Positions 23,969 to 61,000 of a stretch of DNA of 64,000 bases are shown piece after piece (the stretch's first letter is position 1; every line of letters begins with the position of its first letter). This stretch comes from Eubacteriales bacterium. Its GTDB lineage: Bacteria > Bacillota > Clostridia > Oscillospirales > CAG-272. The stretch covers positions 27,113 to 91,112 of the forward strand of contig JBGVIN010000104.1 in the NCBI GenBank assembly GCA_045123255.1. Reading direction: 5' to 3'. Below the pieces are notes generated by a model. The model had not been told where the DNA came from. It ran no database searches and saw nothing but the letters and a program-made list of their open reading frames with translations. Position numbers and translations under genes: made by a program.

Positions 23969-23985
23969 TTCAATAAACCTCCTTA

Positions 23986-39674: not shown

Positions 39675-39690
39675 ACACAATATATAGTAT
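39675..39690. promoter_or_regulatory. NrdR box (proximal)
   Basis: ACACAATATATAGTAT matches the 16-bp consensus acaCwAtATaTwGtgt at 15 of 16 positions. Confidence 0.6.
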
Positions 39691-39723
39691 TGCCCATTGT
39701 TTGCTTAAAAAGCATTTAGGGCG

Positions 39724-39780
39724 CAAAAAAACACCAAGACTTTTGCCTTCATCTCACAAGTCCTTTATTTACAGGTGTTT
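39724..39780 (-). promoter_or_regulatory. terminator-like hairpin plus U-run inside the nrdD leader
   Basis: Minus strand: AAACACC...AGGACTT..AAGTCTT GGTGTTTTTTTGCG. It lies between the upstream promoter and the proximal NrdR box. Confidence 0.45.
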
Positions 39781-39830
39781 TCGACCAAAAAAGAAAAAAT
39801 GTGACATAATCGGTTCCGGTGTCGAAATCA

Positions 39831-39883
39831 ATTATATCACATATATAGTATTATGTCAATAGGAAAATTACAATATATAGTGT
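39831..39883 (-). promoter_or_regulatory. nrdD promoter with two NrdR-box-like sites
   Basis: TTGACA (39854-39859) - 17 nt - TATAAT (39831-39836) on the minus strand. Box TTACAATATATAGTGT at 39868-39883 matches 14 of 16 positions. A degenerate 15-nt box at 39837-39852 fills the spacer. Box centres are about 31 bp apart. Confidence 0.55.
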
Positions 39884-39889
39884 TTTTTA

Positions 39890-40582
39890 TCAAATTCCGC
39901 GAATTTCGGTATTTGTCACAAAAGCGCTTGCCAAATCCCTTGCTTTTTTCATATTCTCGGGTGAAAATGCACAAAAGCCGCTTGATATTAAATCGCCCGA
40001 GTCAACAAAAGACTGTAAAAAATATCTTTTTGCGCCCGAAATCGTTTTTGCTATCTCCACAATATCTTGTGTTTCGTGAATTCCCTTAACAACCGTGGTT
40101 CTGAATTCGTAATCAACTCTACCGCTAAGCAAAAATTCAACCGTTTTCTTAAACGGAGTGGTATCGACACTTTCTATTCCTGTGGCAAGGGAGTACTTTT
40201 CGTAAGTGCTCTTGAAGTCAACCGCAACGTAGTCAACAAGTCCCTTATTTACAAGTGGAATTAGCTTTTCGGGGAAAAAACCGTTCGTGTCGAGCTTTAC
40301 CGAATAGCCAAGAGATTTAACCTCTGAAATGAAGCCTTCTATTTCTGCGTGCAAAAGCGGCTCGCCGCCCGAAATGCAAACGCCGTCTAAAATCCCCTGT
40401 CTTTTTTTGAGGTACGCAAGAATTTCTTCCTTTTTATATATATTTGAATTATCTATATGTGTCACCAAACTCGCATTGTGGCAAAACGGGCATCTTAAAT
40501 TGCAGCCCGACGTAAAAAGCGTGCAAGCCACCTTGCCCGGATAGTCAAGCAGCGTTAGCTTTTGAAAGCCTGAAAAATTCAT
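39890..40582 (-). CDS. nrdG: anaerobic ribonucleoside-triphosphate reductase activating protein (radical SAM)
   Basis: CNLRCPFCHN cluster motif, GGEPLL, and DYPGKVA near the N-terminus. Confidence 0.9.
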   Translation of the reverse strand: MNFSGFQKLTLLDYPGKVACTLFTSGCNLRCPFCHNASLVTHIDNSNIYKKEEILAYLKKRQGILDGVCISGGEPLLHAEIEGFISEVKSLGYSVKLDTNGFFPEKLIPLVNKGLVDYVAVDFKSTYEKYSLATGIESVDTTPFKKTVEFLLSGRVDYEFRTTVVKGIHETQDIVEIAKTISGAKRYFLQSFVDSGDLISSGFCAFSPENMKKARDLASAFVTNTEIRGI

Positions 40583-44389: not shown

Positions 44390-47300
44390 ATGGCAAACAA
44401 AAAAAGAATTTTATCCTTTGTTTTGGCTCTTGTTATGGTTTTGGGTGTGGTTATGCAGCTTGTTGCGTGCGGACCTAACAGCACCGACACGGGCACGGGC
44501 GGAGGAACAAACACGGATACCGGCTCAACAGACACGAGCACAGGTGGCGGTAACCAAAACGTTGACAAGGTTGGCTATACCGTAAACGTTAAATCAATCG
44601 GCGGTATGGCACTTGAGGGTGTTAAGGTTTACGTGGCTGATGCAGAGGGCAACATCAAAAAGGAAGGCATCGGCACAACTAACCATTTGGGTAGCGTTAC
44701 GCTCAATCTTCCACGTGCAAGCGGCTACACAATCTCTCTTGAGGACTATCCCGAGGGATATATAGTTGAGGACAGCTACGATATGGGCACGACAGGCGCA
44801 ACCATTACGCTTACCTCTGCACCTATTAAGGGTGACGCGGCGGGTGCGCGCTACGAGCTTGGCGATATCATTCACGATTACAAGATTACAGTTGACGGCG
44901 TTACATATACCTTCTCTGAAATTTTGAAGGAGAAGAAGGCTATCGTTCTTAACTTCTGGTTCACAACGTGTAACTACTGTATTGAGGAATTCCCCGATAT
45001 GGAGGCTTCATATGCTAAGTATGCTGATACAGTTGCGCTCTTCGCGCTTAACGGCAAGCTCGGCGGCGACTCCGTTTCCGAGGTTGATAGCTTCCGTACA
45101 AGCTTCCACTATGCATATAACGACTTCACATCACTCCGCGCAGCTCTTGTTGCAAACGAGCTTACGAATGCAATAGGAAAGGGTATTTCATACGAGGTTC
45201 TCAGTCAGCAAAAGATTGACGAGGGCTTTGATAACACCTTGCTCCTTATTCTTGAGGCTGACGACAAGAGTGCTAAGGCAAACGAAATTGCAGACGCAAT
45301 CGTGGAGGCTCTTTACAAAGAGGACAGCTCAAATCTCAAGGCAGCACTTCTTGCATTTGCTGACGAGCTTAAGATAGCTGACGTAGCAAACGAGGATGCA
45401 CTTGGTGAAATTTTTGCAAACGCAAAGAAGAATATTTACAATTCATTTGCACTCAACCTTCCTATGGTTAAGGATGCAAACGATATCGAGTCTTGCTTTG
45501 GTATTACAGGTAACCCTGTAACGATAGTTATCGACCGTTACGGTATGATTTCATTTATGCACCAGGGCGGAATTCCAAACGAAAAGTATTTTGACTCACT
45601 CTTTAACTATTTCACAATCAGAGATTACGAGCAAAACCTCTTTAACGGTATTGGCGAGCTTTCACCAACAGTAAAGCCTGACCAATCTAAGGTTCCATCA
45701 AGCGAGGAATATACAGACGCTCTTAACAAAAACGGCGCAGATATCGAGTTCTATCCCGAAACCGAAACGGGCGACTGGGAATACTCATGGCCATTCGTTA
45801 TCACAACAAAGGACGGCGTAACAGGCGTTAAGCCGTCAAACTACGACCAGGATACTTCCTTTGCAACACTCCACGCAAAGGTTAAATTGAATGCAGGCGA
45901 GGCAATTATGTTTGATTACCTCACCTCAACACAGTACGGCTACGACGTTATGTACGTTTTGGTTGACGGCAAGGACATCTACACAATTTCGGGTGAAACC
46001 GAGGCTTGGAAGGGTTGTTGCCCTTGGGTTGCTAAGGAGGACTGTGAAATCGACCTTGCATTCGTTTATACAAAGGACTACGCAGACTACGAGGGTGACG
46101 ACGCGGTTTATCTTTCAAACTTCCGCGTTGTATCCGCAGAGGAAATCGACGTTGCAACCTATATTCCGCGTGATGCCGCAACTAACTTGAACGAGTACGG
46201 CAGTGACTACGAAAATTACGTTGAGGTGTTCCTCGGAAGCGACGGATACTATCACGTTGGCTCGGAAACAGGTCCTATCCTTCTTGCAAACCTTATCGGA
46301 TATACAAACTTCTCAGGCGATTACAGCGTTACGCTTGACATCACCGAAACCAAGGAATTTATAGTAAACGGCGTTAACTGCTACAGCGACTTAATTAAGT
46401 ACTGTAACTATGCTTCTAACTCACAAATTTACAATCTTTGCTCAGTTACTCCTAAGCTAAGAGAATATCTTGAAGCATTCGTTGACCAAAAGATCGGCGT
46501 TGGCGAGGGCAATCCTAACCAATGGCTCACGCTCTGCTCATACTACGATGCATACGGCACGGACGGCGTTCAGCTCGAGGACCCAATCAAGGGACTTGCT
46601 TCATTCAGCGCATATGAGGTTAAGGAGGATTCACCTAACCTCGTTGAATACAATAGAGTAATTATGCCAAGAGGACTTCTTTATAAGTTCGTTCCTACAA
46701 AGGACGGCGTTTACCGCTTCACCACGAACAGTGAATACGAGGTAAACGGTTGGATCTTTATCGGTGACCATGACACTTGGCTTGAAACAGGTGACAGAAT
46801 TCTTTATACCGACTCCGACGTTGGAGAAAGATTCTGTACAGAGCTTCTTGTTGACCCCGACGGCGACGGCACTTACGAGCGTGACTATACAAACGCATCG
46901 TTGGTTGCTTATATGGAGGCAGGCAAGGAGTACTACATCGACTTTGCTTACTATGACCAATATCAATTCGGCAAATTTACCTTTGACGTAAAATATCTTG
47001 GCGAAACGTATGACCACTTTATCGCAGCTTCCCCTGGAGTATTTACATACGAGGAGGGAATTGGCGGCGCAATGGGTGATACCATCGCGGGCGGCATTGA
47101 CGTAAAGCTTGGTGACGACGGCTTATATCACCACTTGAAGAAGGACGGCACACTCGGTTCAATACTTTATGCTGACTTCTCACACACAACCTCAATCTTC
47201 ACCTCACAGTCAATTAAGATGCTTTGTGAAGCAGGTGCGTTCAACTTTGCAATTACCGAGGTTGACCAGCTCGCAATTGCTTACCTTGAAAGATACGGCG

Positions 47301-47704
47301 TGGACGGACTCCGCGACGCGTGGGGCGATGACTACGAGCATAACTATCAATATTACCAAATGGACGATATCATAAACGGTATCTACCACGGCTACTACGT
47401 TGACGGTGTATATAAGTCATTCGGATACGTTTACGTTGATGATGAAACAACGGGTGAAACCACAATGGTTCTTCAAACACCTCCAAAGAATGCGGTGCCT
47501 GCACCTGACTATACGGCTCTTATCGAGAAATATTACGGTATGATTCATAACAGCGACACTGAGTACGTTGAGCGCCAGGGCTGCGTTGCCGTAACTAAGG
47601 AGCTTGCAGACGCGCTTCAAATGCTTATGGATAAGTTCACGTTTGAGGGTGTTGAGCATTCTTGGACAAAGCTTTGCTATTACTACAACTATCTCGGACA
47701 GTAA
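44390..47704 (+). CDS. large surface lipoprotein with Ig-like (carboxypeptidase-regulatory-like) domain, embedded TlpA/ResA-like thioredoxin fold, and two copies of an uncharacterised module
   Basis: Lipobox LVAC. T/D/G-rich linker. KAIVLNFWFTTCNYCIEEFP (CxxC) and GNPVTIVIDRYGMI. Repeated DGYYHVG..GPILLA / DGLYHHL...GSILYA modules. Confidence 0.7.
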   Translation: MANKKRILSFVLALVMVLGVVMQLVACGPNSTDTGTGGGTNTDTGSTDTSTGGGNQNVDKVGYTVNVKSIGGMALEGVKVYVADAEGNIKKEGIGTTNHLGSVTLNLPRASGYTISLEDYPEGYIVEDSYDMGTTGATITLTSAPIKGDAAGARYELGDIIHDYKITVDGVTYTFSEILKEKKAIVLNFWFTTCNYCIEEFPDMEASYAKYADTVALFALNGKLGGDSVSEVDSFRTSFHYAYNDFTSLRAALVANELTNAIGKGISYEVLSQQKIDEGFDNTLLLILEADDKSAKANEIADAIVEALYKEDSSNLKAALLAFADELKIADVANEDALGEIFANAKKNIYNSFALNLPMVKDANDIESCFGITGNPVTIVIDRYGMISFMHQGGIPNEKYFDSLFNYFTIRDYEQNLFNGIGELSPTVKPDQSKVPSSEEYTDALNKNGADIEFYPETETGDWEYSWPFVITTKDGVTGVKPSNYDQDTSFATLHAKVKLNAGEAIMFDYLTSTQYGYDVMYVLVDGKDIYTISGETEAWKGCCPWVAKEDCEIDLAFVYTKDYADYEGDDAVYLSNFRVVSAEEIDVATYIPRDAATNLNEYGSDYENYVEVFLGSDGYYHVGSETGPILLANLIGYTNFSGDYSVTLDITETKEFIVNGVNCYSDLIKYCNYASNSQIYNLCSVTPKLREYLEAFVDQKIGVGEGNPNQWLTLCSYYDAYGTDGVQLEDPIKGLASFSAYEVKEDSPNLVEYNRVIMPRGLLYKFVPTKDGVYRFTTNSEYEVNGWIFIGDHDTWLETGDRILYTDSDVGERFCTELLVDPDGDGTYERDYTNASLVAYMEAGKEYYIDFAYYDQYQFGKFTFDVKYLGETYDHFIAASPGVFTYEEGIGGAMGDTIAGGIDVKLGDDGLYHHLKKDGTLGSILYADFSHTTSIFTSQSIKMLCEAGAFNFAITEVDQLAIAYLERYGVDGLRDAWGDDYEHNYQYYQMDDIINGIYHGYYVDGVYKSFGYVYVDDETTGETTMVLQTPPKNAVPAPDYTALIEKYYGMIHNSDTEYVERQGCVAVTKELADALQMLMDKFTFEGVEHSWTKLCYYYNYLGQ

Positions 47705-47779
47705 TTAAACGATATTAAAATAAAAACCCAAGAAGGAGCTGTCGCAAAAGCGGCGCTCCTTTTGGGAATAGTGAGAAAT

Positions 47780-49396
47780 ATGAAAAGAAAAATATTTATT
47801 GCGCTTCTTTTAGTGTTAACGCTTGCATTTGCGCTCGTTCTTGCTTCCTGCGGTGGCGATAGCAATACGGATACTGATACAAGCGCTGATACGAATACCG
47901 ACACAGGGTCAAGCGAAATTACCTACACCGTTAAGGTTGTGGATTACACAGGCGCGCCTATTACCTCAGGACTTTTCGTTCAGATGTATAAGGACGGAGA
48001 AGAGCTTGGCTCAATGAAAAAATCTAACAAAAACGGTGAGGCAAGCTTCACTCTTGAAAAGGGCGAATATACCTTTGAGCTTGTTTTGACCGACGATACG
48101 GTTACATATGACAAATCAAGCTGCGTTCTTACAGAAAAAGCTCCAAGCAAGGAAATTATGCTTTATAGCGAGCTTGGCAACCGTGAATTTGTGATGTACC
48201 CGTACGATAGCGAGCTTGGCGAAAGATACGAATATCGCGCTAAGTTTATAAACGAGGGTGCAACCCTTGTTCCGATAGAGGGCATGACGTACTACGTTTT
48301 CGAGCCTACCCGCGGCGGTATATATAAGTTTAGCTACATTAGTGACGTTGCCTTGACAATAGGCTACTTTGGCGGAAGCGAGCATTTCGTTTTCGAGGAA
48401 AGCAGTATAGAGGTTAAGGACAGAGCATTTACTATTGAGGTTAAGGATTCGGGCGTTTCAAGCGAGCATACGGGCACAACGCGAATTATTATCGGTGTGC
48501 GCTCACTCGTGGTTGACTCCTGCGTTATGACAATAGAGCGTATCTCCGACCCCGTGGCTGAAATACCGAGAATTGACTATCTCCCAATTGAATATCCAAG
48601 TGAGGTATGCTCTTATTCTTACCTCAACGCAACCTTAGTTGACGTTGACGTTTTAGATAAGAATTTATCTATTGTATATAACGCCGAGGACGGCTTTTTC
48701 CACCACGGCGATGAAAACGGACCTATCGTTCTTGTAAGAATTACAAGTGCAAGCAAATACCTTGCTTCATTCTCAAAAATTTGCGAAACCGCGGCACTTT
48801 ACGGCTCAATTTACGATGATAGCGGAAAGCTCCTTCGCACAGAAATTTATAACAATATGATTGCAGTATATGCAGAAAAATGCGACGATAGCGGCGTTGT
48901 TCCGCTTACACGCGAGCTTTTGTATGCGGTTACAAATATGGGTAACCACAGCGGATGGTTCGAGGGAGAGCAATCAATTTTCAGAATAGGTCAAGGCGGC
49001 GAGGAGGACGGCACGGTTATTGAGGGCACGCTACTCGAGGTTCCTCTTGAAAACGCACCGTATTTTGCATGCTGCTACCCTGTTCCAAATGATTTCGGCT
49101 CATCAGAGGACAAGAGAATTACTATAACCGATACAACGGAGCCAAAGCAAATGCTTGCCGCGTTAGGTGCGGGCGAAACGCTTTACTTTAAGGGCGCGCG
49201 CCTTACAAAAACAACGCTTAAAATCACCGACGCACAAGGCTTAAAGGTTATCTTTAACGGAGAGGAATATACTCCAAGCGAAAACGGAATTATAGAAATC
49301 AGCTTTGATGCTACCTCGCCTATTGAATTCCAAATTGTAAACGAGAATGAAATAAGCAAGGATGCAAAAATCACTTACACAACGTTTATCGCATAA
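47780..49396 (+). CDS. surface lipoprotein, paralogous module shared with the upstream gene
   Basis: Signal peptide with lipobox LASC. DTDTSADTNTDTG linker. Ig-like domain. DGFFHHGDENGPIVLV module. Confidence 0.65.
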   Translation: MKRKIFIALLLVLTLAFALVLASCGGDSNTDTDTSADTNTDTGSSEITYTVKVVDYTGAPITSGLFVQMYKDGEELGSMKKSNKNGEASFTLEKGEYTFELVLTDDTVTYDKSSCVLTEKAPSKEIMLYSELGNREFVMYPYDSELGERYEYRAKFINEGATLVPIEGMTYYVFEPTRGGIYKFSYISDVALTIGYFGGSEHFVFEESSIEVKDRAFTIEVKDSGVSSEHTGTTRIIIGVRSLVVDSCVMTIERISDPVAEIPRIDYLPIEYPSEVCSYSYLNATLVDVDVLDKNLSIVYNAEDGFFHHGDENGPIVLVRITSASKYLASFSKICETAALYGSIYDDSGKLLRTEIYNNMIAVYAEKCDDSGVVPLTRELLYAVTNMGNHSGWFEGEQSIFRIGQGGEEDGTVIEGTLLEVPLENAPYFACCYPVPNDFGSSEDKRITITDTTEPKQMLAALGAGETLYFKGARLTKTTLKITDAQGLKVIFNGEEYTPSENGIIEISFDATSPIEFQIVNENEISKDAKITYTTFIA

Positions 49397-49421: not shown

Positions 49422-51554
49422 ATGACAAGAAAAATTTTAGCGCTTGCTCTTGTTTTGCTTACCGTTCTTGCTTGCACGTTCGTGTTCGCTTCCTGTGGTG
49501 GTAGCAACGGCACTGATAGGGATACAAGCACGGGCACGGGCGGTCAAACTGACACAAGCACGAATACAGGCAATCAAACAGACACAAGCACAGGCGGAAA
49601 TACGGACGGTGAGCCGGTAACCTATACGGTTTACTTCCAAAATCAAAACGGTCAACCGATTGAGGGCATCAATGCACAGGTTTGCCTCCCGGGCGGCTTC
49701 TGCTTACCGCCAAGAACGTCCGATGCCGAGGGCGTTTGCAAGTTCCAATATACTGAAATTGCAGCTCTTGAAATCCAAGTTAACTCAGTTCCAAACGGCT
49801 TTATCAAGCCTGAGGGCTACATTCCGTTCCCTGATGGAAGAACGTCAGCGGTTGTTACCGTTCAACAAAACGAAACGTATACGGTTACAGCAACCGACCT
49901 TCACGGCAACCGTCTTTCAAACATTTTAGTCGAGCTTTATTTGGAAGCAGGTGACGAGCTTGCCCAAAGCGCGGTTACAGAGTCAAACGGCCGCGTTAGC
50001 TTCGTTGTTAGCCCTGATAAATATTACGCAAAGGTTAGCCACGCCTACGGCAACGGCGCATTCACCTTCCTTAACGAAACTGATACCGTTACGTTTGAAA
50101 ACGGTAAAAATGCACAAATTCAGTTCGTTGTCCTCGGCACTCCCATTGATTATACAGCTATAATCAAGGATGAGGGCGGCAACAAGGTTTCGGGTGCTAC
50201 CGTTAAATTCTATAACGAAGAATTTGATATGGTTTACGAGGGTACTACCGATGAAAACGGCGAGGCTAAGGCTTCACTCAGAAACGGCAGCTACTACGTA
50301 TGCGCCTACCTTGACGGTAAGTACGTGAAGGCTGAGACCGTTCAAAGAAACGGAAGAGTTACTCTTGAAATGACTTGTCAAGACGTAACTCCGGGATGTG
50401 ACAGAGACCATCCTATTATGATTCTCGGCGATCTTGACGTTAAACAAGCAGGCGGCACACAGCTTTGGTATAGCGTGCCAAACGCAAAGGGCAAAACCGT
50501 TGAAATTGCATCAAGCGACGTTGAGGTGCTTTACGGCGGAAAAACCCACAAGGCAGAAAACGGCAAGATTGAATTCATCTTGAAGGAAACGGGCGAGGCT
50601 ACATTTAGAATTAAATGCACCGAGGGCGAAGATACACAAATCACAGGCAAAATATATAAGCGCGGCTCAATTAAAACACCTGAAGAAATTGAGGTTGAGA
50701 GCGAATATACCTTCAAGGACGTTAATATCGGCGAGGGCGAAAAATACTACTTCTCATTCGTTGCAAGCACAAGCGGCACAGTTAAGGTTACAACAGATAC
50801 TGAAAATGCGGTTATCTCCATTAACGGCGTTAGATTCAAAAAGTCCGTTGAAGCAGGTGACTTGGTTGTTATTTGCTTCTTTACTGAAAAGATTTCAGGC
50901 GATAGCGTATTAAGCCCTGAGGCTCAAATTTCCGCATCACTCACGTTTGGCGAGTCAAGCGCGCAATATTCCGCAACAGTTAAGGTTGAAAACGAAAATA
51001 AAGCAGGCGTAAGTGCAGAGCTTTACTACCTAAGCGGCGAAGAATATCAGCTTATGGGTAGCTACGTGAGCGATGAAAACGGAGTTATTTCATTCGGTGA
51101 GCTTACCGAAACAGCTAAGTATTACATCAAGGCAAGCTACGGCGAGGATTACGAGGCTGTTGACGAGTACATTCCGTTCGGTGACGAAAACGACGTTATC
51201 GTATATATCACACACAAGCGTGACGGTAGTATGCTTTACCCATTCTTGGTTGACGCTGATAGCGAAACCAACTCAACTGAGGTAACGGTTGGTGATGGAG
51301 GTGAGGTATGGTACACACTCTTCTATATCACAGGCTCGACTATTTCAATTGATAGTAGCTTTGCAACCGCTGAAATTTATACACAGTCAGGCGACGGTGC
51401 GCCATCACTTCAAGCAACGTTGTCGGCAGAAAGCCTTTCATACGTGCTTGAATCCGACTACGGCACGACAACCAGAGTTCTTATTAAGATTACCTGCCAA
51501 GGCGGCGGCTCACTTAACCTCACTTACGTTACACCACAAATTGAGAAAGAATGA
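49422..51554 (+). CDS. surface lipoprotein with multiple carboxypeptidase-regulatory-like (Ig-fold) repeats
   Basis: Lipobox FASC. TGTGGQTDTSTNTGNQTDTSTGG linker. At least four repeats of the Y.V.V.D..G.P..G..V pattern. Confidence 0.65.
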   Translation: MTRKILALALVLLTVLACTFVFASCGGSNGTDRDTSTGTGGQTDTSTNTGNQTDTSTGGNTDGEPVTYTVYFQNQNGQPIEGINAQVCLPGGFCLPPRTSDAEGVCKFQYTEIAALEIQVNSVPNGFIKPEGYIPFPDGRTSAVVTVQQNETYTVTATDLHGNRLSNILVELYLEAGDELAQSAVTESNGRVSFVVSPDKYYAKVSHAYGNGAFTFLNETDTVTFENGKNAQIQFVVLGTPIDYTAIIKDEGGNKVSGATVKFYNEEFDMVYEGTTDENGEAKASLRNGSYYVCAYLDGKYVKAETVQRNGRVTLEMTCQDVTPGCDRDHPIMILGDLDVKQAGGTQLWYSVPNAKGKTVEIASSDVEVLYGGKTHKAENGKIEFILKETGEATFRIKCTEGEDTQITGKIYKRGSIKTPEEIEVESEYTFKDVNIGEGEKYYFSFVASTSGTVKVTTDTENAVISINGVRFKKSVEAGDLVVICFFTEKISGDSVLSPEAQISASLTFGESSAQYSATVKVENENKAGVSAELYYLSGEEYQLMGSYVSDENGVISFGELTETAKYYIKASYGEDYEAVDEYIPFGDENDVIVYITHKRDGSMLYPFLVDADSETNSTEVTVGDGGEVWYTLFYITGSTISIDSSFATAEIYTQSGDGAPSLQATLSAESLSYVLESDYGTTTRVLIKITCQGGGSLNLTYVTPQIEKE

Positions 51555-51670: not shown

Positions 51671-51697
51671 AAAAAATGGCAGGAAAACCTGCCATTT
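51671..51697 (-). terminator. intrinsic terminator of the polyferredoxin operon
   Basis: AATGGCAGG / CCTGCCATT stem followed on the minus strand by TTTTTTG. Confidence 0.8.
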
Positions 51698-51702
51698 TTA
51701 CA

Positions 51703-53487
51703 TTAGTTGTTCATAGCCTTTTGAATTTCTGCAATTAACGTGCTTTCATCGATTGCAGAGTAGTTTGAATAGGTAATTACTCCGTTTTCATCAAGCACGA
51801 TTGTCCACGGGTACATTGGGAAGCTCTTGCCTGTTACAAGCTTGAAGTAATTATCTACGGGGGCATCCTCGCTTTGTCTGGTGTCCTTTAAGAAAACGAG
51901 CGCGGAGTCCTTGTGATTTTCCAAAACGTGCTGCGGTGCGGTGTCAAAGCCGTCAACGGAGTGAACGGCGTAAATTACAACCGAGTCACCGTATTCGCTT
52001 GCAACCTTGCCGAAGTGCGGAAGCTCTGCAACGCATGGCGGACACCAAGTGCCCCAGAAGTTGATAACTGTAACCTTGCCGCTTCCTGCTGTGACAGGGT
52101 CGACAAATTCGCCCGAAAGACCGTTTTCGTCGAAGATTTCAAGTGATGAGCTTGGAAGCATATTTCCGATATTTGTGCCAACGGTTGCGCCTGAGCCTCC
52201 GCTCGTGTCCGTATCGGTTGTGGCAGGTGGGTTATCGCCAAACAAATCGCGTACGTTATCCCAAAGCTGCTCATTTTTGATTACGTTAAAGTAGAAAAGC
52301 ACCGAAACGAGAACAACACCCATAAGGGAGCCGATAATTATCTTTCTTGTTCTGTTCTTTTTCTTGATTTTTGCATTTTCAATTTCGCCCTGTGCAATAA
52401 TTTCTGCACGCTCTTCATCGCTTGCGCCATTTGGCACCTTGATTTCGTTAGGTGCTAAGAAAATCTTAGGACCCTTAAAGGAAATAGCCTTCGTTGGGCA
52501 AACGTCGATACATTCACCGCAGCTGATACATTCCTGGTCGCCAACGTGCTTGATATCAAGCTTACATTTCTGTACACATTTACCGCATTTCGTACACTTG
52601 TCGCGGTTTAATTTAATTCCAAAGAATGAAAAACGGTTGAAAAGACTGTAAATTGCGCCGAGCGGACAAATGAAACGGCAGAACGCACGGTATGCAAAAA
52701 TACAGAAAACAACAATGGAAACGAATAAAACAAATTTCCAAGTAAAGAGTGAGCCGATACCGCCAAGCAAGCTTGTGTCAAGCGGCAAAATACCGAACGC
52801 GCCCTCTAAAATACCTGCCGGACATATGTATTTGCAGAACGCAGGGAAAATTCCAAAGCCTGCAAGAATGAAAACGAAAACCGCTAAAATTACGTATTTA
52901 AGATAGGAAAGAGCGCGGGTAACGCCGCTTTTCTTTAATTTAGGCGTTTTGATTTTGTAAATTAAATCCTGGAAAAGACCGAATGGGCAAAGCCAACCGC
53001 AAATTGTTCTGCCAAGCATTAAGCCGTAAAGGAACAAAATTCCGAGAATATAAAACGGCATACGCTTGTTTCCAAGCTCATTTTGAAGTGCGCCGAGGGG
53101 ACATGTGCCGATAGCGCCGGGGCAGGAGTAGCAGTTTATACCGGGGGAGCAAATGAATTTGCTTTTTCCAACGAACATATTTCCTTGAACGTAGCCCTTT
53201 AGGTTTGCATTGAAAAGAAGTGCAAAATAAAGCTGAGCAATTCGCCTTTTTGTTGGAATTATGCTGCAAAGCCACGACTTAAAGGAACGCTTTTTCTTTG
53301 GCTTTTCAAGAGGCTGCGCACCACTTGAATTATCGATGTTTTGCGCACCCTGTGTCGCAAATTTAGCACTGAATGCCTCATCCTCGCCGCCTATTAAGTC
53401 GGCAAGCGTTGCTTCTTTTGGCTCAGTGTCAATCATTTCTGTCGCTTCGTTAAGCGAGGTGTTTTCTAAAAGCTCTTTTTCTTCCAT
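51703..53487 (-). CDS. membrane polyferredoxin (NapH/MauN-type 4Fe-4S protein) fused to a C-terminal extracytoplasmic TlpA-like thioredoxin domain
   Basis: CYSCPGAIGTCP, CGWLCPFG, CKYICPAG and CRFICPLG in TM regions. Two ferredoxin motifs, CTKCGKCVQKC and CISCGECIDVCP. A further TM helix, a TTDTDTSGGSG linker, then VINFWGTWCPPCVAELP. Confidence 0.75.
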   Translation of the reverse strand: MEEKELLENTSLNEATEMIDTEPKEATLADLIGGEDEAFSAKFATQGAQNIDNSSGAQPLEKPKKKRSFKSWLCSIIPTKRRIAQLYFALLFNANLKGYVQGNMFVGKSKFICSPGINCYSCPGAIGTCPLGALQNELGNKRMPFYILGILFLYGLMLGRTICGWLCPFGLFQDLIYKIKTPKLKKSGVTRALSYLKYVILAVFVFILAGFGIFPAFCKYICPAGILEGAFGILPLDTSLLGGIGSLFTWKFVLFVSIVVFCIFAYRAFCRFICPLGAIYSLFNRFSFFGIKLNRDKCTKCGKCVQKCKLDIKHVGDQECISCGECIDVCPTKAISFKGPKIFLAPNEIKVPNGASDEERAEIIAQGEIENAKIKKKNRTRKIIIGSLMGVVLVSVLFYFNVIKNEQLWDNVRDLFGDNPPATTDTDTSGGSGATVGTNIGNMLPSSSLEIFDENGLSGEFVDPVTAGSGKVTVINFWGTWCPPCVAELPHFGKVASEYGDSVVIYAVHSVDGFDTAPQHVLENHKDSALVFLKDTRQSEDAPVDNYFKLVTGKSFPMYPWTIVLDENGVITYSNYSAIDESTLIAEIQKAMNN

Positions 53488-53498
53488 ATTCTACCTCC

Positions 53499-54311
53499 TT
53501 AACCAAGACCGATACAGCCTGTGCAAATGTTGTTTGCATACGTTAAAACGTTTTTGATATCACCCGTTGCCATACCTACTATGATAAATATAGCGGCAAG
53601 AGTGCCGAGTGCAATTTGAAGTGCCAAAATAAATTTTTTAGAGTGCTTTTTTATAAAGCAAGGCTTCTTTTCCTCGGGTAAGGAAATTTCGCCCTTCTTT
53701 ATTTTCTTTGCTTGCTTTTCCATAATGGCGCGCACCGCTTCAAGCACTTTTTCGTAGGTGAAATTAGCAAAAATGTCGTAAACGACAGCAACAAAGAATG
53801 GGATAACTGCGTAAGCCATAATCTTTGCAATAACAGGCAAAATTTCGTTAAGCTTACCTGCGTCAACCTCGCTAAGATTGCTCTTTGTGAAGATGAAAAT
53901 GAGCGCAGAAACGAAATTTATAACCCCGTTGACTATAGTAATGATAAAAAATGCACGTCTAAAGCCACTTTGGCTTTTGATAACCGCCTTTAAGTCCGCA
54001 GGTGCTTCGTCGAGATTTATTCTCTTGTAAAGGTTTTTGAGCAAATCCTTATTCGAAATGGAAGCTGTTATTTTTTCCTCTTCAGATGGGAAAACCGCGT
54101 GCAAAACTATACCGCCAATAATTGATGCGATACAGAGAAGCACAGGGGCAAGTATCCACAAAAAGTGTGATTTTATGGCGTCGGTCGTGAATTTTCCCGC
54201 ATTGTTTATATCAACGCAGCTGACAATAAAGCAAATGCCGACTGCAAAAATCAAAACGGAAAGCACAATACCGTATATAAGGTGCAAAATTTTCGTTTTT
54301 TTCTCTTGCAT
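53499..54311 (-). CDS. polytopic membrane protein ending in a CxxC tail (…NNICTGCIGLG)
   Basis: 270 aa with about 6 TM segments. AAAGGAG RBS. 11-nt gap to the polyferredoxin gene, which has its own AAGGAGG RBS, so the two are probably co-transcribed. Confidence 0.5.
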   Translation of the reverse strand: MQEKKTKILHLIYGIVLSVLIFAVGICFIVSCVDINNAGKFTTDAIKSHFLWILAPVLLCIASIIGGIVLHAVFPSEEEKITASISNKDLLKNLYKRINLDEAPADLKAVIKSQSGFRRAFFIITIVNGVINFVSALIFIFTKSNLSEVDAGKLNEILPVIAKIMAYAVIPFFVAVVYDIFANFTYEKVLEAVRAIMEKQAKKIKKGEISLPEEKKPCFIKKHSKKFILALQIALGTLAAIFIIVGMATGDIKNVLTYANNICTGCIGLG

Positions 54312-54543
54312 ATATACTCCTTTATAATGATTTATAAAATATTAGCACAAATATTGTAACACATAAAGAATAGTATGTCAAGCAAAAAATAGGCGCGCGT
54401 GCGCCAAGAGCAGAGAATAACGAGGGGAACGACACGAAAAAGACATAAAAATCCACCCGAGCAGGCTTGGGACAAGCACACATCTTTAACTCAGGGATTT
54501 TAGGCAAAAAAGTGCCAAAATCAGACACTCCCCGAGGGATTTT

Positions 54544-54786
54544 TATGCAACCTCGCGGTTGATGATATACAACCTTGCGGTTGATGATATGCACACATTC
54601 GTGTGGTGATATACAATGCGATGCATTGATGATATACACGCTAAACCGTGATGATATGCAACCTTGCGGTTGATGATATGCAACCTTGCGGTTGATGATA
54701 TGCAACCTTGCGGTTGATGATATGCAACCTCTCGGTTGATGATATGCAACCTTGCGGTTGGTGATATACAACCTTGCGGTTGATTT
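54544..54786 (+). repeat. 11-unit tandem array (period 22-23 nt) of TGATGATAT-linked hairpins
   Basis: Units start at 54544, 54566, 54588, 54610, 54633, 54655, 54677, 54699, 54721, 54743 and 54765. Stems are CAACC/GGTTG (8 units), CACAC/GTGTG, CAATGC/GCATTG and CACG/CGTG. Confidence 0.9.
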
Positions 54787-55092: not shown

Positions 55093-58000
55093 ATGAAAAG
55101 AAAGAATTTAGCAAGAATAGCAGTCTTGGTAGTATCTGTGATACTGTTGCTCTCGACCGCGCTTTCCCTGACCTCCTGCACCATAGCAAATGCAGCTGAT
55201 GCAGTTGACACTCAAACGTTTGAGGGATTATTTAGAGAGCTTTCCGACGTAATTATTGACAAGACTCAGTACTACTCAGGCACGTCTATTCAAAAGCTCC
55301 CCTCCACAGTTAAGGACAGTGACGAAATTTCCGTTATTGTTCAGCTTAACACAAAAACGCTCCTTGACGCGTATAACGAAAAGGATAGGGAAATTTCCTT
55401 TGCGGAATTTATTTTGACTGACGAGGCAGCCGATATTGAGGCGGGCATGAATCAAGCAAAGAAGGAAATTACCGCTAAGCTTGACAAAAAGGGCATAAGC
55501 TACGAATTGGGTGCTGATTATTCAGTGCTTCTTTCAGGCTTTGAAATCGTTATCAACGCGCGCGATTTCGAGACGAGCGCAAAATCCCTCCCAAGCTACG
55601 CAACCGCACTTGTAAGCGAGGTGTATAACGTCAGCGACGCTAAGCCTGTTGAAAATATCGTCAACGTTCACGAATCAACGGGTATTTTTAATAGCAAGGG
55701 CTACGCTTATGACGGCTCGGGAATGGTTGTTGCAGTTCTTGACACAGGTCTTGACTACACACACTCCGCGTTTTCTATGAAAAAATTCACGTCTACCAAG
55801 CTCGGTCTTACAAGAGATATGGTTGCAGCCTGCCTTGCAAGAACAAAGGCAACGACAATGGTTAACGGCTTAACGGTTAACGACGTTTACTTAAACGATA
55901 AGGTTCCTTTCTCGTTCGACTATGCAGACAGAGATGCAGACGTTTATTCATTACATAACAACCACGGTACACACGTTTCGGGTGTAATCGTTGGTAACGA
56001 CGATACGATTACGGGCGTTGCACCAAACGCGCAGCTCGTTTCAATGAAGATTTTCTCCGATGTTCAGGATTCTGCAAAGGCATCTTGGATTCTTGACGCA
56101 CTTGAGGATTGCGTGGTTCTCAACGTTGACGTTATCAATATGTCACTCGGTACAGCCTGTGGCTTTAGCCGCGAGTCAGACAGAGAAATGATGAGCGGTG
56201 TTTACGATAGCATTCGTGAACAGGGCATTAGTATGATAGTTGCCGCATCAAACAGCTTCTCCTCGGCATACGGCTCAGAGAAGAACGGTAACTTGGGTCT
56301 TACCTCAAATCCCGATACCTCGACGGTAGGCTCACCTTCAACCTATGAGGGTGCTATGTCCGTTGCTTCAATAAACGGTGTTAAGACTCCGTATATGCTC
56401 CATAACGGCAAAATCATTTACTTTATAGAATCAAATAATGCGGGCGCTGAGGAAAGAGATTTCGTTGAGGATTTGCTTCCTGATGGCGTTGACGAAAAGA
56501 AATACGAGTTCGTTCTTATCCCGGGTGCGGGACGTGATGCCGACTATACGGGTATGGACGTAACAGGTAAGATAGTTCTCGTTGAGCGTGGCTCAAATAC
56601 GTTCGAGGAAAAAGCTAACGTAGCACAAAAGAAGGGCGCTGCGGGTATCATCATTTTCAATAACGTATCAGGTGATATCAAAATGAACGTTGGTCTTACA
56701 ACCGTTGCGGTTTGCTCAATTTCGCAAAACGACGGTAAGGAGCTTGCAGCCGCAGGTAAGGGCGAAATCACCATTAGCCGCTTACAAAAGGCAGGTCCGT
56801 TTATGTCCGACTTCTCCTCGTGGGGACCTTCACCGACACTCGGCATTAAGCCTGAAATCACCGCACACGGCGGTAACATTCTTTCTGCAATAACAGGTGG
56901 CGGCTACGACCGTCTTTCGGGTACGTCAATGGCGTGTCCAAACCTTGCAGGCTTTACAATCCTTTTGCGTCAATACGTGGAAACCAACTATGATAAGCTT
57001 ATTGGCGACGGCGAAACAAACGAATATAAGCGTAGCGTAAATATCAACGCTATGGTTAACCGCTTGATGATGTCAACCGCTGACATCGTGCTTAACAAAA
57101 ACGGCTTGCCATATGCGGTAAGAAAGCAGGGCGCAGGTCTTGCAAACCTTATTGCGGCAACTGAAACAGAGGCGTACATCCAAACCTATAAGAAGGATGG
57201 CACCGCTATGGACAAGACCAAGCTTGAGCTTGGCGACGATGTAAAGAAAACAGGCGTATATACACTTAACTTCGACGTTGTAAACTTTGGCACAAGCGAG
57301 CTTTCATACGTTCTTGATGCATCGGTTATGACTGAGGGCGTGAGCGACGTTTTGACACACCAGGGTGAAACAACCGTTACTGAGGAGGGCTACCTTCTTG
57401 AGGGTGCAACCGTTGAATTTACAGTTTCAGGCGGTGGCAAAAGGGTTGGCGATGAGGTTAGAGTTAATGCAGGCTCAACCGCTAAGGTTACAGTTACAAT
57501 AAAGCTTACCGATGAAAACAAGGCTTACCTTGATAAATCCTTTGAAAACGGTATGTACATCGAGGGCTTCGTTTCTCTTTACAGCCAAAACGAAAACGGC
57601 ATAGACTTAAACGTTCCGTACCTCGCATTCTATGGCAACTGGGCACAGGCTCCGCTCTTCGATATGGATTATTTCGAAACAAACCGCGACGAGCTTGACG
57701 ATACAATCCCAACGCTTGATAAAACACTTCCCGATGCATATGCGACACGTCCTATCGGCGGCATTGAGGAGGACTACGTTAGCTATCTCGGCTCGTACTA
57801 CTTCTTGCAAAATCCAAGCGACAGAATTATCGCGGCAGACCGTGATTACATCGCACTTTCAAATATGAACGGCACAATCCACTCCATAAGATTTATCTGG
57901 ATGGGTATGCTCCGTAATGCAAGCGAAATTAAGGTTACCATCACCGACTCGACAACGGGTGAGGTGGTTTACGAAACGGTTGAAAAGCTCGTTCGTAAGT

Positions 58001-61000
58001 CCTACGGTGACGGTGGCTCATACCTATACCCCGCAAACGTTGACGTTGAATTCGACGTTGGCGAGCATAACCTCAAAAACAACACGGAATATTACGTTAA
58101 GTGCGAGGGCTTGCTCGACTATGAAAACGACGGCAAGGAAGATAATCTAAATAACACCTTCGAGTTCCCATTCGTTACCGACTTTGAAGCGCCAACCTTG
58201 ACAGGCTGCGAATTCTATACAGAGTACGATAAGGAGCTTGAGCGCGACCGTCTTTATGTCAGAATGGCGGTTTACGATAACCACTACTCAATGTCTGCAC
58301 AGCTTGGCTACGTTGATAAGGCAAGCTACGAGTTCATTTCATTCAGCCAATATATGACACCTATTTACTCAGTGAAAAACGGTGTTTCATACGTTGAATA
58401 CGAGCTTACAGACCATATTTACGCAATTAAGAACAACGCGGCAAATCCGAATTCGATAGTTTGTGCAACGTATGACTACGCGCTTAACGACGCAACCTAC
58501 GAAATTGATTTACCGGATGCATATCAGGACTTCTATTTTGAGGAAAAAACAGTTACCCTCAGTCCTAATGAGCTTTATAACATCAAGCCACTTATCCGTC
58601 CCGGCACGGAGTGGGGCGAGCTTCTTACATACTTCTCAACAAACCAAAAGGTTGTAAGAGTTGTAAACAACAAATTAGTTGCAGTTGCTCCGGGTAAGGC
58701 ACTTATCTGGGCGCAAGACCCCGAAACAGGTAAGCAAACGTCATTTGCCGTTACGGTTCTTTCAGAAAATGACGAGGGCTTTGAATATTTCGATAAGCCT
58801 GTTGCAGATAGCTTTGTTTTGACAGGCTACGATACAATAAGAGCTTACTATATGGTAGATAGCTCAGACCGCGACATCGGCGCAGACGGCGATAAGCGCG
58901 TATTCTCAAACGGCAACTACTTCCTTTCAATGTATCCGTCTGAGTCCGTTCAGCTCAAATATAAGCTCGATGCTTATTTCAGCGGCACAACGGTTGAATT
59001 TGAAACAAGCGACGACAGTATTGTAAAAATCGACCAAAACGGCGTTATCGTCGCAGAGGCAGAGGGCTTCTCCTCAGTTACGGTAAGAGTATTGCTCGAC
59101 GGAAAGAGCACGTACTATTCACAAACCGTTTCAATCGAGGTTAAGGACCCATTCGTTACACAGTCACCAAACCTTACACACTACTACGGTAAGGGCGGAA
59201 TTGTTGAAATTCCCGAGGAGCTTTTGCTCGTTGAAATTGCACAGTTTGCATTCTCAAACAGCCAATATATTCCTAAGGAGTCCTGGGAGCTTGACCCTGA
59301 GGACCCAAGCACATCAAAGATTTGGTATATCGGTGACAACACGATAACTAAGGTAATAATTCCTGAGGGTGTTAAGAAGATTAACGCATATGCGTTTGCA
59401 AATCTTACAGCCCTTGAAACAGTAGTTCTTCCTTCAACACTTGAAGCAATTGAGTACGGCGCGTTCTACGGCTGCTCAAAGCTTTCGAAGGTAGAGGGAC
59501 TTGAATACGTTCAGCTCATCAATAAGGAAGCGTTCGACGGATGTAACCTTAAGGGCACAATCTCACTTGACAATGCTTGTGCAATAGGCGACTACGCATT
59601 TGCAAACAACGGTCAGTGGGTTGATACAAACGGTGACGGAACTCCCGACACCAAAAACTCATTCCTTGAAGAAATCATTCTTCCAAAGAAGCTTCAGTCA
59701 ATCGGTGCATATGCATTCTACGGCAATAGCGCACTTAAAACAGTAACGGTTAACGCCGAAAAGGTTAAGTACGGTCCGTACGTATTCTCAGGCTGCCGTT
59801 CACTTGAGAGCGTTTCAATCAACGCAGACGTTATTCCTGAGGGCGCATTCTACGGCTGCTCCAAGCTTAATACCGTTACAATAGGCAAGGACGTTAACAC
59901 AATAGGCGCGGTTGCATTTGCAAAAACATCTATTTCAGAAATCAATATTGACAGCGCAAATAAATCTTATAAGCTTTCAAGCGATAAAAATTACGTTCTT
60001 TCAAGCGACGGCAAAACGCTTGCAATGGTTCTGCCAACCGTATCAGGCACGTTTACCTTGAACGATCCTAACGTAACTACGATAGGCACGGGCGCATTTG
60101 CATATACCTCAAAGATTACAGAGGTTAATATCCCAAGCGTAACAATAGTTGAGGACAACGCATTTGAAAGCTGTACGTCACTTAAAAAGGTAACTCTCGG
60201 CAACCTTGAAAAAATCGGCAAGTACGCATTCTTCAAGACGTCGATAAATGAATTACCTACATTAAATAATATAAAAGAAATCGGCGCGTACGCATTTGCA
60301 TACACCGACCTTGTCGAGGTTGAAATTCCTGCGGGCATGAAGGTTGGCGAGGGTGCATTCTGCGAGTGCAAGTATCTTGAAACAGTCGTTATCGGAAACG
60401 GCGTAGAGCTCGGCATGGGCGCATTTATGCTCTCAAGAGGCGAGAATAGTGAGCTTGTTCGTGACGAAACCGTAACAGATAAGAAGATATACTACTACAA
60501 GTACACATCAAGCTTGACAAGCCTTGAAATCGGCAACGACGTTAAAGTTGGCGAAAGCGCATTTATGGGCGCGGCTATGCTTGAAAGGGTTACAATGGGT
60601 ACGTCAATTACCCTTGGTGACCAAGCATTCTACAGCGCTTGCAGCTTGAAGGAAATTGACCTCTCAGGCGTTATCTCAATAGGTAAGGGCGCATTCGGCG
60701 GTGATATTCTTTATACCTACACCGACGCAAACGGAAACTCTGTGCTCGTTGAGGACAACTACTACGTTTACCGCTACTACACACCTAAGCTTGAAAAGGT
60801 TGACCTTTCATCACTTGAATACCTTGGCAAAGAAGCATTTATCAACTGCTTTGAGCTTAAGGAGGTTGTACTTGGCGAGAAGCTTAAGGAAATTTCAGAC
60901 CATGCGTTTGAAAACTGCACAGGCTTGACACTTATTAACCTTGAAAACGTAGAGGTTATCGGTATTCAAGCATTTGCGGAAACGTCACTCATTTCAGCTA

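Follow-up and report, generated by a model that had tools for sequence, protein, structure and literature searches.

In bacteria, the reduction of thiols outside the cytoplasm is fed by cytoplasmic thioredoxin via proteins of the DsbD/CcdA family. A locus in a stretch of 64,000 nucleotides from an Eubacteriales bacterium of the CAG-272 lineage (contig JBGVIN010000104.1; the whole stretch is referred to as the window) raises the question of whether the same task can be accomplished with different parts. Two adjacent genes on its minus strand encode a fusion protein of 594 amino acids, in which a NapH-like membrane core with two ferredoxin-type iron-sulfur (Fe-S) motifs is joined to a thioredoxin domain, and a membrane protein of 270 amino acids, which terminates in a CxxC motif. 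Our analysis suggests, with about even chances of being right, that this operon constitutes a transmembrane thiol-reducing machine, which performs the job of DsbD/CcdA by other means. A more far-reaching proposal is that such operons represent an unrecognised class of transmembrane disulfide reductases, in which a relay of a NapH-like core and a CxxC mini-subunit, powered by cytoplasmic ferredoxin-type Fe-S clusters instead of thioredoxin, feeds thioredoxins at the cell surface and replaces DsbD/CcdA in many gut Clostridia, and which would provide a first function, as a thiol/disulfide relay, for the CX3CP motifs that occur in NapH, NosR and RdhC; this we put forward tentatively, as a possible but rather doubtful extension.

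The two-gene operon

Both open reading frames (ORFs) are located exactly where a previous sequence-only reading of this DNA had placed them, separated by a gap of 11 nucleotides (nt), as is evident from the ORF table and from a check of the sequence. The fusion and its partner, with five predicted transmembrane (TM) helices, are arranged with their putative control elements as follows:

54353..54381, minus strand: candidate promoter for the gene pair (TTGACA, a spacer of 17 nt and a TG-extended TACAAT), identified by consensus match
53499..54311, minus strand: partner gene, membrane protein of 270 residues with 5 TM helices, N-terminus predicted inside and C-terminus outside by hydropathy, charge and an AlphaFold2 (AF2) model
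53488..53498, minus strand: intergenic gap of 11 nt, GGAGGTAGAAT, with a GGAGG ribosome-binding site inside
51703..53487, minus strand: fusion gene, encoding a variable acidic N-terminus, a NapH-like core, two [4Fe-4S] motifs, a TM anchor, a linker and a ResA/TlpA-like thioredoxin
51672..51699, minus strand: intrinsic-terminator-like hairpin, a 12-bp stem followed by a T-run, 4 nt past the stop codon

The promoter-like site agrees with the consensus in 11 of 12 positions, ranks top in its region and lies 42 nt 5' of the ATG at 54311. Since it precedes the first gene, and the hairpin with its T-run follows the second, the gene pair looks like a self-contained operon of two genes.

Domain architecture and cysteine conservation of the fusion

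All motifs that had been quoted for the 594-residue protein are present in its translation, namely CSPGINCYSCPGAIGTCP, CGWLCP, CKYICP, CRFICP, two ferredoxin motifs, a TM helix, the linker and WCPPC. The corresponding features are listed from the N-terminus to the C-terminus:

52618..53256, minus strand: NapH-like membrane core (helices H0, A, B and C; residues 78-290), delineated by two Fer4_5 matches, TIGR02163, the NapH alignment and the charge pattern
53098..53151, minus strand: four-cysteine loop CSPGINCYSCPGAIGTCP (C113, C119, C122, C129), predicted at the outer face, invariant in 91 sequences
52984..53001, minus strand: first CX3CP motif (CGWLCP), predicted at the inner face, invariant, aligning with CSWVCP of NapH
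52819..52836, minus strand: second CX3CP motif (CKYICP), predicted at the outer face, invariant, without counterpart in NapH of Escherichia coli
52663..52680, minus strand: third CX3CP motif (CRFICP), predicted at the inner face, C274 invariant and C270 conserved in more than 90%, aligning with CGHICP of NapH
52495..52596, minus strand: two [4Fe-4S] motifs (CTKCGKCVQKC ... CISCGECIDVCP), predicted to be cytoplasmic, Fer4/Fer4_7, eight invariant cysteines, aligning with NapH
52279..52344, minus strand: helix TM-D KIIIGSLMGVVLVSVLFYFNVI, predicted signal anchor exporting the thioredoxin, hydropathy 2.2, supported by charge bias and by gene splits just before it
51706..52167, minus strand: ResA/TlpA-type thioredoxin domain, WCPPC at 52033-52047 within C-x-x-C-x-x-E-L-P, Redoxin 40.5 bits

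TM-D and the thioredoxin domain are connected by a linker rich in threonine, aspartate and glycine. Among the Pfam models, the protein is matched by Fer4_5 (56 bits, in two stretches), Fer4 (37 bits), Redoxin (40.5 bits) and AhpC-TSA (35 bits), and also by Fer4_7 and Thioredoxin. The top match in NCBIfam is NapH/MauN (TIGR02163, residues 149-338), whose cut-off of 213 bits is not reached by a score of 87.4 bits, and the NapH equivalog NF007013 likewise remains, at 69.4 bits, below its cut-off of 234 bits. Residues 466-569 are weakly matched by ResA, TlpA and StoA (about 36 bits versus equivalog cut-offs of 170-230), and a weak match to the CcoG family (TIGR02745, 29 bits) is far under its cut-off.

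Conservation was assessed in an alignment of 91 homologues with 46-87% identity. Invariant are the cysteines C113, C119, C122, C129, C163, C167, C218, C222 and C274 of the membrane core, the eight ferredoxin cysteines, and C482 and C485 of the thioredoxin, while C270 in the third CX3CP motif is conserved in more than 90% of the sequences. In total, ten cysteines of the membrane core, eight of the ferredoxin domain and two of the thioredoxin are thereby invariant or more than 90% conserved. Judged from this alignment, the arrangement of domains is a conserved design and not a product of chance. Some members of the family even feature two thioredoxin domains in tandem.

The family is also widespread. 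A protein search yielded 5,415 matches among 8,000 candidates scored, and 119 of the 120 best matches contain both Fer4_5 and Redoxin/AhpC-TSA, the exception being a protein of 400 residues with 52% query coverage. In the databases, these homologues are named only 'MAG: 4Fe-4S binding protein' (MAG, metagenome-assembled genome), 'redoxin family protein' or, in one record of JGI, 'thiol-disulfide isomerase/thioredoxin/ferredoxin'. In a scan that took a single genome for each GTDB species, relatives occur in at least 588 genomes, and the 80 carriers that were fetched are nearly all MAGs of gut or rumen Clostridia, including Oscillospiraceae, Faecousia, Acutalibacteraceae, Christensenellales and Lachnospiraceae. 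By these matches, the 594-residue fusion is a member of a conserved family rather than a one-off.

Membrane topology

The predicted orientation of the fusion follows from the distribution of lysine and arginine (K+R) and of aspartate and glutamate (D+E), averaged over the 91 sequences:

N-terminal flank: 6.4 K+R in 17 residues, predicted inside
Loop 1, with the four-cysteine motif: 2.5 K+R in ~40 residues, predicted outside
Loop 2, with the first CX3CP motif: 5.3 K+R in 28 residues, lysine-rich, predicted inside
Loop 3, with the second CX3CP motif: 1.7 K+R versus 2.3 D+E, net acidic, predicted outside
Third CX3CP motif and ferredoxin domain: predicted inside (no charge figure)
Stretch before TM-D: 6.0 K+R in 17 residues, predicted inside
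Stretch after TM-D: 2.8 K+R versus 8.8 D+E, predicted outside

For the core, this pattern agrees with four TM helices and a cytoplasmic N-terminus; the four-helix topology of NapH served as the model for counting H0 as a TM helix. In 5-6 of the related loci (L093, L070, L072, L075, L083, L084), the gene is split exactly between the ferredoxin domain and TM-D. Because these natural splits lie before TM-D, the separate thioredoxin protein possesses its own N-terminal signal anchor, which constitutes independent support for export. The placement of the thioredoxin outside the membrane, which had been proposed from topology rules, is accordingly also predicted by the charge bias (n = 91), by the gene splits and by a fold resembling that of ResA, Etrx and CcmG. 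A dual Sec-Tat export, which would bring the ferredoxin domain to the outside, was considered and rejected: a twin-arginine motif is absent before TM-C and TM-D, and the charge bias places this domain inside.

The thioredoxin domain and the direction of electron flow

The Redoxin score of 40.5 bits surpasses the Pfam cut-off of 26.6 bits, and around the active site the residues W478, C482, C485, E488 and P490 are invariant among the 91 homologues. From about residue 440 onwards, the AF2 model shows a predicted local distance difference test (pLDDT) of mostly 87-97, and Foldseek retrieved ResA (1su9) with a TM-score of 0.86 and, more generally, ResA, Etrx2 and CcmG with 0.83-0.86, as well as Etrx1, DsbF and SdbA. 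The dipeptide between the active-site cysteines is variable in the family (PP, GP, GG, NP, SC and others), WCGPC being frequent, while C-x-x-C-x-x-E-x-P, which we take to be the signature of the reducing ResA/TlpA/CcmG class, is invariant. By sequence signature and predicted fold, the domain is of the ResA/TlpA/CcmG class.

These features bear on a reversal of the electron flow, i.e. a disulfide-forming system similar to DsbB or VKOR for an anaerobe devoid of quinones, in which the thioredoxin domain would oxidise exported cysteines, and the cysteine relay would carry the electrons inward, by way of the Fe-S clusters, to an acceptor in the cytoplasm. The architecture as such leaves the direction of flow free, the active-site dipeptide varies, and the exported proteins encoded in the neighbourhood contain 1.0-1.6% cysteine, which is high for secreted proteins of Firmicutes and could reflect structural disulfides. 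On the other hand, the domain belongs to the ResA/TlpA/CcmG group, with invariant C-x-x-C-x-x-E-x-P and often WCGPC, and these are reducing signatures, unlike the CPHC of DsbA. Moreover, ferredoxin-type [4Fe-4S] clusters are usually of low potential and constitute a poor sink for electrons from thiol oxidation, and the accessory proteins found in some of the operons score best against ResA and StoA. An oxidative role is considered quite unlikely for these reasons.

The partner protein and its CxxC tail

The protein encoded upstream of the fusion had been described as a 6-TM protein with the C-terminus CTGCIGLG. The latter is confirmed by the translation, whereas hydropathy, charge and AF2 converge on five TM helices followed by a short C-terminal helix. 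In the hydropathy profile, the TM cores comprise residues 15-33, 51-69, 122-140, 160-178 and 227-245; lysine and arginine amount to 9 and 13 on the predicted inner loops and to 0 in the tail; and the AF2 model (mean pLDDT 76) exhibits five long helices as well as a short terminal helix, residues 251-267, which bears the CxxC. Owing to the odd number of helices, five instead of six, the CxxC tail is predicted to reside outside, beside the thioredoxin, and not in the cytoplasm. The part of the partner that is conserved is confined to its end:

53502..53639, minus strand: conserved C-terminal module (last TM helix and ...NNICTGCIGLG), CxxC at 53514-53525, NF040920

All 158 homologues of the partner are unnamed 'hypothetical' proteins, in which the terminal C-x-x-C-I-G-L-G is invariant. 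Their conserved unit consists of only the last TM helix and the tail N-G-G-x-x-D-V-L-x-K-A-x-x-I-C-T-E-C-I-G-L-G, i.e. about the 38 last residues of the partner, and matches the NCBIfam entry NF040920, 'CD1871A family CXXC motif-containing protein', which is a bare name and whose members of ~47 residues are called 'thioredoxin' in older records. With 23.5 bits, the tail in the window falls below the cut-off of 32 bits, carrying Y for K and G for E (CTGC versus CTEC). Full-length orthologues from the related loci L003 and L004 reach 34.7 and 40.6 bits, respectively, and mini-proteins 39.9-49.4 bits; the orthology of the partner in the window is supported by full-length homology in combination with synteny.

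The association of this tail with the NapH-like gene is close to universal. Directly 5' of the latter, an ORF ending in C-x-x-C-[IVLM]-G-[LIM]-[GF]-stop was found in 83 of 84 loci, the one exception being locus L078, which begins within the gene. After correction of gene starts, the two genes abut or overlap, with spacings of -38 to +68 nt save for L075 (277 nt). Six mini-versions of 46-51 residues were examined in addition, and all six are encoded directly 5' of a Fer4_5 protein which either carries a fused Redoxin domain or precedes one. An exhaustive profile search for the tail module produced 2,911 representative clusters (50% identity); in the 150 best representatives it is without exception at the extreme C-terminus, and its carriers cluster at lengths of ~48, 150 and 257 residues, corresponding to 1, 3 and 5 TM helices. 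By a crude count, 223 of 251 tail carriers possess an odd number of TM helices, which keeps the tail opposite the positively charged N-terminus and, hence, outside. The tie between the two proteins, which had been suspected from their adjacency in this one locus, is therefore stronger than first thought, and genomic context suggests that the CxxC-tail protein is an obligate partner of the NapH-like gene.

Relation to NapH, NosR and RdhC

To the NapH protein of E. coli (b2204), the core shows 23% identity. Common to both are a core of four helices, an RRxxQ motif at the first of these, a CX3CP motif following each of helices 2 and 4 (the first and third in the fusion) and a C-terminal pair of [4Fe-4S] motifs. 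In contrast, NapH lacks the four cysteines of loop 1 as well as the second CX3CP motif, so that six extra cysteines, all of them invariant, are particular to the family. These six are exactly those predicted at the outer face, where the CxxC of the partner and the WCxxC of the thioredoxin are predicted as well. The fusion is further distinguished from NapH by its additional TM helix, the fused thioredoxin and the CxxC-tail partner, and from the context of NapH/MauN by being carried by gut Clostridia. In the PDB, both a sequence search and Foldseek found counterparts for just the thioredoxin and ferredoxin portions, and a solved structure of a NapH-like core was not among them.

Given this kinship, the protein might be an ordinary quinol dehydrogenase of the NapH type, fed by menaquinol, with a cytoplasmic Fe-S domain of merely structural or subsidiary role. 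NapH/MauN is indeed the top curated match (87 bits), and the literature views NapH as a subunit that oxidises quinol (PMC5928378, PMC8238504). The score, however, stays far under the cut-off of 213 bits, nap, nos and cytochrome genes were not found in the window, and a nap or mau context was not found in the related contexts examined. Invariance of the eight ferredoxin cysteines argues for a functional entry of electrons from the cytoplasm. Furthermore, most gut Clostridia of the kind that nearly all of the 80 fetched carriers represent, Oscillospiraceae and Christensenellales included, to our knowledge lack quinones. Such a quinol-fed enzyme appears most improbable.

Parallels are also provided by systems of the NosR/RdhC (PceC) type. 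NapH-like cores joined to an outward FMN-binding domain (FMN, flavin mononucleotide) have been proposed to move electrons across the membrane to redox partners outside the cytosol (PMC8238504), and the fusion shares with NosR and RdhC the combination of such a core with an outward redox carrier (Méheust et al. 2021, PMC8238504; Buttet et al. 2018, PMC5928378). The carrier differs: in NosR/RdhC it is an N-terminal, ApbE-flavinylated FMN domain with an [S/T]GA[S/T] motif, whereas in the fusion it is a C-terminal CxxC thioredoxin, and matches to the Pfam models for FMN_bind and ApbE were not found in the 594-residue protein, its neighbours or the related contexts examined. Likewise particular to the fusion family are its additional cysteines at the outer face and its CxxC partner. 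For the CX3CP motifs of the NosR/RdhC systems, no function has been assigned, though a thiol/disulfide role has been judged likelier than the binding of an Fe-S cluster, given that NosR contains only ~8 Fe (PMC5928378).

Relation to DsbD/CcdA and other thiol-reducing systems

With DsbD, CcdA and ScsB, which serve ResA, TlpA, CcmG and Etrx, the operon would share the job of keeping an extracytoplasmic thioredoxin reduced. The entry of electrons sets them apart, since in DsbD/CcdA a thioredoxin reduces a pair of membrane cysteines, while in the fusion this part would fall to Fe-S clusters and ferredoxin. PF02683, the TM domain of DsbD, is matched neither by the 594-residue nor by the 270-residue protein, so that a sequence relationship is not apparent. 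Nor was a Pfam match to DsbD/CcdA found among the ORFs of at least 150 residues in the window, of which 37 out of 42 were scanned and the other five mostly or wholly overlap longer scanned ORFs. The claim of the sequence-only reading that no CcdA is encoded here thus holds for the ORFs scanned in the 64-kb window, but not as a statement beyond it.

This scope leaves room for a CcdA encoded elsewhere in the genome as the reductant of the thioredoxin. The NapH-like core and the CxxC partner would then serve an unrelated purpose, for example in sensing or in regulation, and their fusion to the thioredoxin would reflect mere co-localisation; NosR, too, was first taken for a regulator (PMC5928378). 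What speaks against it is that fusion or adjacency of core, thioredoxin and CxxC tail is kept in at least 588 species and at identities as low as ~40%, and that the family-specific cysteines are found on the predicted face of the thioredoxin. Besides the lack of a DsbD-family gene among the scanned ORFs of the window, flanks of ±10 kb, scanned without a DsbD model, disclosed no further recurrent family. We consider a separate CcdA route with an unrelated membrane core very unlikely.

The transfer of single electrons from a [4Fe-4S] cluster to an adjacent disulfide, to which the proposed chemistry can be likened, is performed by ferredoxin:thioredoxin reductase and by HdrB/HdrD. These enzymes are soluble or face the cytoplasm, and we know of no sequence similarity between them and the fusion, nor of one that acts across a membrane. 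In the mau cluster of methylotrophic Proteobacteria, MauN/MauM are paired with MauD/MauE, a case in which the genes for a NapH-like membrane protein and a TlpA/DsbE-like periplasmic protein lie together, albeit as separate proteins. That pairing comes without fusion and without a CxxC-tail partner, and the accessory thioredoxins in the loci studied here match MauD weakly (32 bits). In the full-text literature, no description was found of a fusion of NapH-like core and thioredoxin, of a route of this kind or of a function for the CD1871A family, and searches for the C. difficile 'CD1871' locus tags led to unrelated tables only. Each part is of a known kind, the core being NapH-like, the thioredoxin ResA-like and the tail that of a curated CxxC family, while their combination and the Fe-S-fed route it implies have not been described.

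A proposed relay across the membrane

Domain make-up, cysteine conservation, gene pairing, fusions and splits, predicted topology and the ResA-like fold are shown by the analyses above. For the operon as a thiol reductase, we infer from them the direction of electron flow, the donor, the crossing of the membrane and the clients as follows. A low-potential donor in the cytoplasm, presumably reduced ferredoxin, would charge the two [4Fe-4S] clusters, from which electrons would pass to the first and third CX3CP motifs at the inner face, the pair that is common to NapH, NosR and RdhC. Subsequently, the electrons would cross the four-helix core to the outer cysteines, i.e. the Cx5Cx2Cx6CP loop, the second CX3CP motif and the CxxC tail of the partner. 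Thiol-disulfide exchange at this site would reduce the fused WCPPC thioredoxin, which in turn would reduce exported clients; candidates are the CNYC lipoprotein, lipoproteins with a C-x4-C beta-sandwich and a cysteine-rich protease, all of which are described below. In favour of this sequence of events, exported redox proteins are linked to the system, on the one hand by a ResA-like protein with WCPPC and a beta-sandwich that is encoded within the operon of other lineages, and on the other hand by domain fusions.

Several points weigh against such a relay. Electrons would have to cross a membrane of ~30 Å without an embedded cofactor, and the Cx5Cx2Cx6CP motif might be a binding site for a metal or an Fe-S cluster instead. 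Helix H0 is weakly hydrophobic (mean 0.67), so that the position of the four-cysteine loop at the outer face rests on analogy to NapH; in the AF2 model this loop has a pLDDT below 50 and the membrane core is of low confidence (pLDDT 45-75). The tail of the window's own partner is a divergent member of its family, with CTGC instead of CTEC and 23.5 versus 32 bits. Finally, the genome may encode a CcdA that reduces the thioredoxin conventionally, as the check spans 64 kb.

If true, the proposed relay would add a second, Fe-S-fed route for extracytoplasmic thiols, which would be tied to the ferredoxin pool of strict anaerobes, and it could explain how cysteine-rich proteases and lipoproteins at the surface of abundant uncultured gut Clostridia are maintained under oxidative exposure. 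Moreover, the family offers a handle on the unassigned CX3CP motifs of NapH, NosR and RdhC, for which the fused thioredoxin represents a built-in acceptor that can be assayed. It also joins three generically named families, namely '4Fe-4S binding protein / redoxin', 'CD1871A family CXXC' and unnamed beta-sandwich lipoproteins.

Neighbouring lipoproteins, beta-sandwich domains and a surface protease

The operon is flanked by a convergent set of three lipoprotein genes and by a divergent protease gene:

44390..47704, plus strand: lipoprotein of 1104 residues, lipobox LVAC, CNYC at 44969-44980, AhpC-TSA 27.8 bits, ResA 43.8 bits, candidate downstream partner
47762..49396, plus strand: lipoprotein of 544 residues (lipo544), starting with a cysteine-less beta-sandwich copy
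49422..51554, plus strand: lipoprotein of 710 residues (lipo710), three CarboxypepD_reg/Big_1-like domains (Big_1 64 bits), the first at ~49629-49883 with VCLPGGFC
55093..62448, plus strand: S8 peptidase of 2451 residues with PA, fn3_5 and BspA-type leucine-rich repeat (LRR) domains, 25 cysteines, divergent, possible client

In all three lipoproteins, the lipobox is followed by a linker rich in threonine, aspartate and glycine and then by a CarboxypepD_reg-like beta-sandwich, of which the 1104-residue protein, like lipo544, carries a cysteine-less copy at its start. The thioredoxin-like CNYC region, which the earlier reading had noted in the convergent lipoprotein, is substantiated by the scores listed for AhpC-TSA and ResA. 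Co-occurrence with the lipoprotein genes, which that reading had named as a test, was encountered in about half of the cases: of the 49 loci for which 8 kb or more of flank is available, 24 encode a lipoprotein similar to the 1104-residue protein, either to its thioredoxin-like or to its C-terminal part, convergently downstream. An S8/LRR gene, transcribed divergently, is found upstream in 17 of the 52 loci whose flank extends to 6 kb or more. L001, L003 and L004 show the same layout as the window for this gene, and the whole arrangement of three lipoproteins and S8/LRR protease is kept in L001 and L004 at ~55% identity. A functional link of the protease to the operon is inferred. When the ORFs of 84 loci were clustered, the only recurrent groups were the partner, the thioredoxin/lipoprotein group, the S8/LRR proteins and generic ABC transporters.

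In other lineages, the operon itself gains exported proteins, either a ResA-like protein that has WCPPC and ends in a CarboxypepD_reg-like beta-sandwich or a lipoprotein of 113-116 residues that consists of the beta-sandwich only. A hidden Markov model (HMM) of the domain, built from these in-operon copies, matched lipo710 three times (E = 4.7e-28) and, within ~10 kb, 58 of 94 sequences (93 loci and the window). The cysteines of the pair V-[QN]-F-C-x4-C are present in 54 and 46 of 84 beta-sandwich copies, respectively, and in L043, L047 and L081 the C-x4-C beta-sandwich is fused C-terminally to the NapH-thioredoxin protein itself; including these, copies within the operon or fused to that protein are found in L085, L087, L089, L091-L093, L043, L047 and L081. 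By virtue of the fusions and of operon membership, the lipoprotein operon is tied functionally to the system, and the C-x4-C beta-sandwich may represent an unrecognised redox-active or metal-binding module.

The latter option leads to a role in metal handling, as opposed to protein-thiol repair, where the membrane protein would supply electrons, or keep metal-binding thiols reduced, for the extracellular reduction or capture of iron or another metal, with the beta-sandwich and thioredoxin folds as metal elements. In L089 and L090 (about 2300-6550 in L089), feoAB, a 113-residue C-x4-C lipoprotein, the CxxC mini-protein and the NapH-thioredoxin gene follow each other, which hints at a link to ferrous-iron uptake. 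The position of the operon directly 3' of feoAB and the C-x4-C lipoprotein in these loci favours a metal role, as do the weak match of lipo710 to NikL, a nickel/cobalt subunit of energy-coupling factor (ECF) transporters, and the weak CcoG-family match of the fusion (TIGR02745, 29 bits), CcoG being a cupric reductase. In addition, thioredoxin-like proteins are known from the P19/FTR1 iron-uptake clusters (PMC8238504). Nevertheless, the Feo linkage is restricted to one lineage, represented by two near-identical loci of ~90, the matches to NikL and CcoG are far under their cut-offs, and there is no metal transporter beside the operon in the window. A metal-handling function would also overlap in part with the proposed relay, as the membrane portion would act as an outward reductase in either case. 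All in all, metal handling seems an unlikely purpose of the system.

A different neighbourhood was observed in L085, L087 and L091, where the ResA-like gene, the CxxC mini-protein and the NapH-thioredoxin gene are followed by a TM1266-like gene, the [FeFe]-hydrogenase maturase gene hydF and two radical-SAM genes. The two radical-SAM genes may be hydE and hydG, and the adjacency of the operon to hydF may be coincidental.

Between the divergent S8-peptidase gene and the operon promoter, the window contains a tandem array of a 22-bp unit (54544-54784, 10.9 copies, 79% matches), each unit bearing the palindrome CAACCTTGCGGTTG. Eight copies occur at no more than 2 mismatches versus 0 expected by chance, and an ORF of 149 residues (54322-54771, minus strand) is a mere translation of the array. 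The array may provide binding sites for a regulator; as the repeat was not found in the 93 related loci, it is not counted as part of the system.

Other features of the window

Two further gene sets characterise the organism. At 36238-40582 (minus strand), a radical-SAM activase (39890-40582), an NrdD protein of 819 residues with a C-terminal glutaredoxin domain (37267-39726) and a TrxB-like flavoprotein (36238-37179) are encoded, a set that resembles a class III ribonucleotide reductase drawing on a thiol reductant instead of formate. A flavodiiron-type protein of 596 residues (33475-35265), composed of metallo-beta-lactamase/ODP, flavodoxin, flavin reductase and C-terminal rubredoxin-like domains, fits the detoxification of oxygen or nitric oxide in a strict anaerobe. 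On account of NrdD and the flavodiiron protein, the organism is taken to be a strict anaerobe.

Two islands of low GC content, 20000-24000 (0.34) and 28000-30000 (0.285), stand out from ~0.44 elsewhere. The first, which encodes a D12-class adenine methyltransferase, an N6/N4 methyltransferase and an IceA-like endonuclease, is likely an acquired restriction-modification system, and the second encodes a tetratricopeptide repeat (TPR) protein. The genes for a DEAD_2 helicase, a class II aminoacyl-tRNA synthetase (tRNA-synt_2) and an aspartate aminotransferase (4961-10280) are ~40 kb distant from the operon in the window, whereas in L003 the same three genes (10386-15812) lie directly beside it, and this difference in position indicates rearrangement between related genomes.

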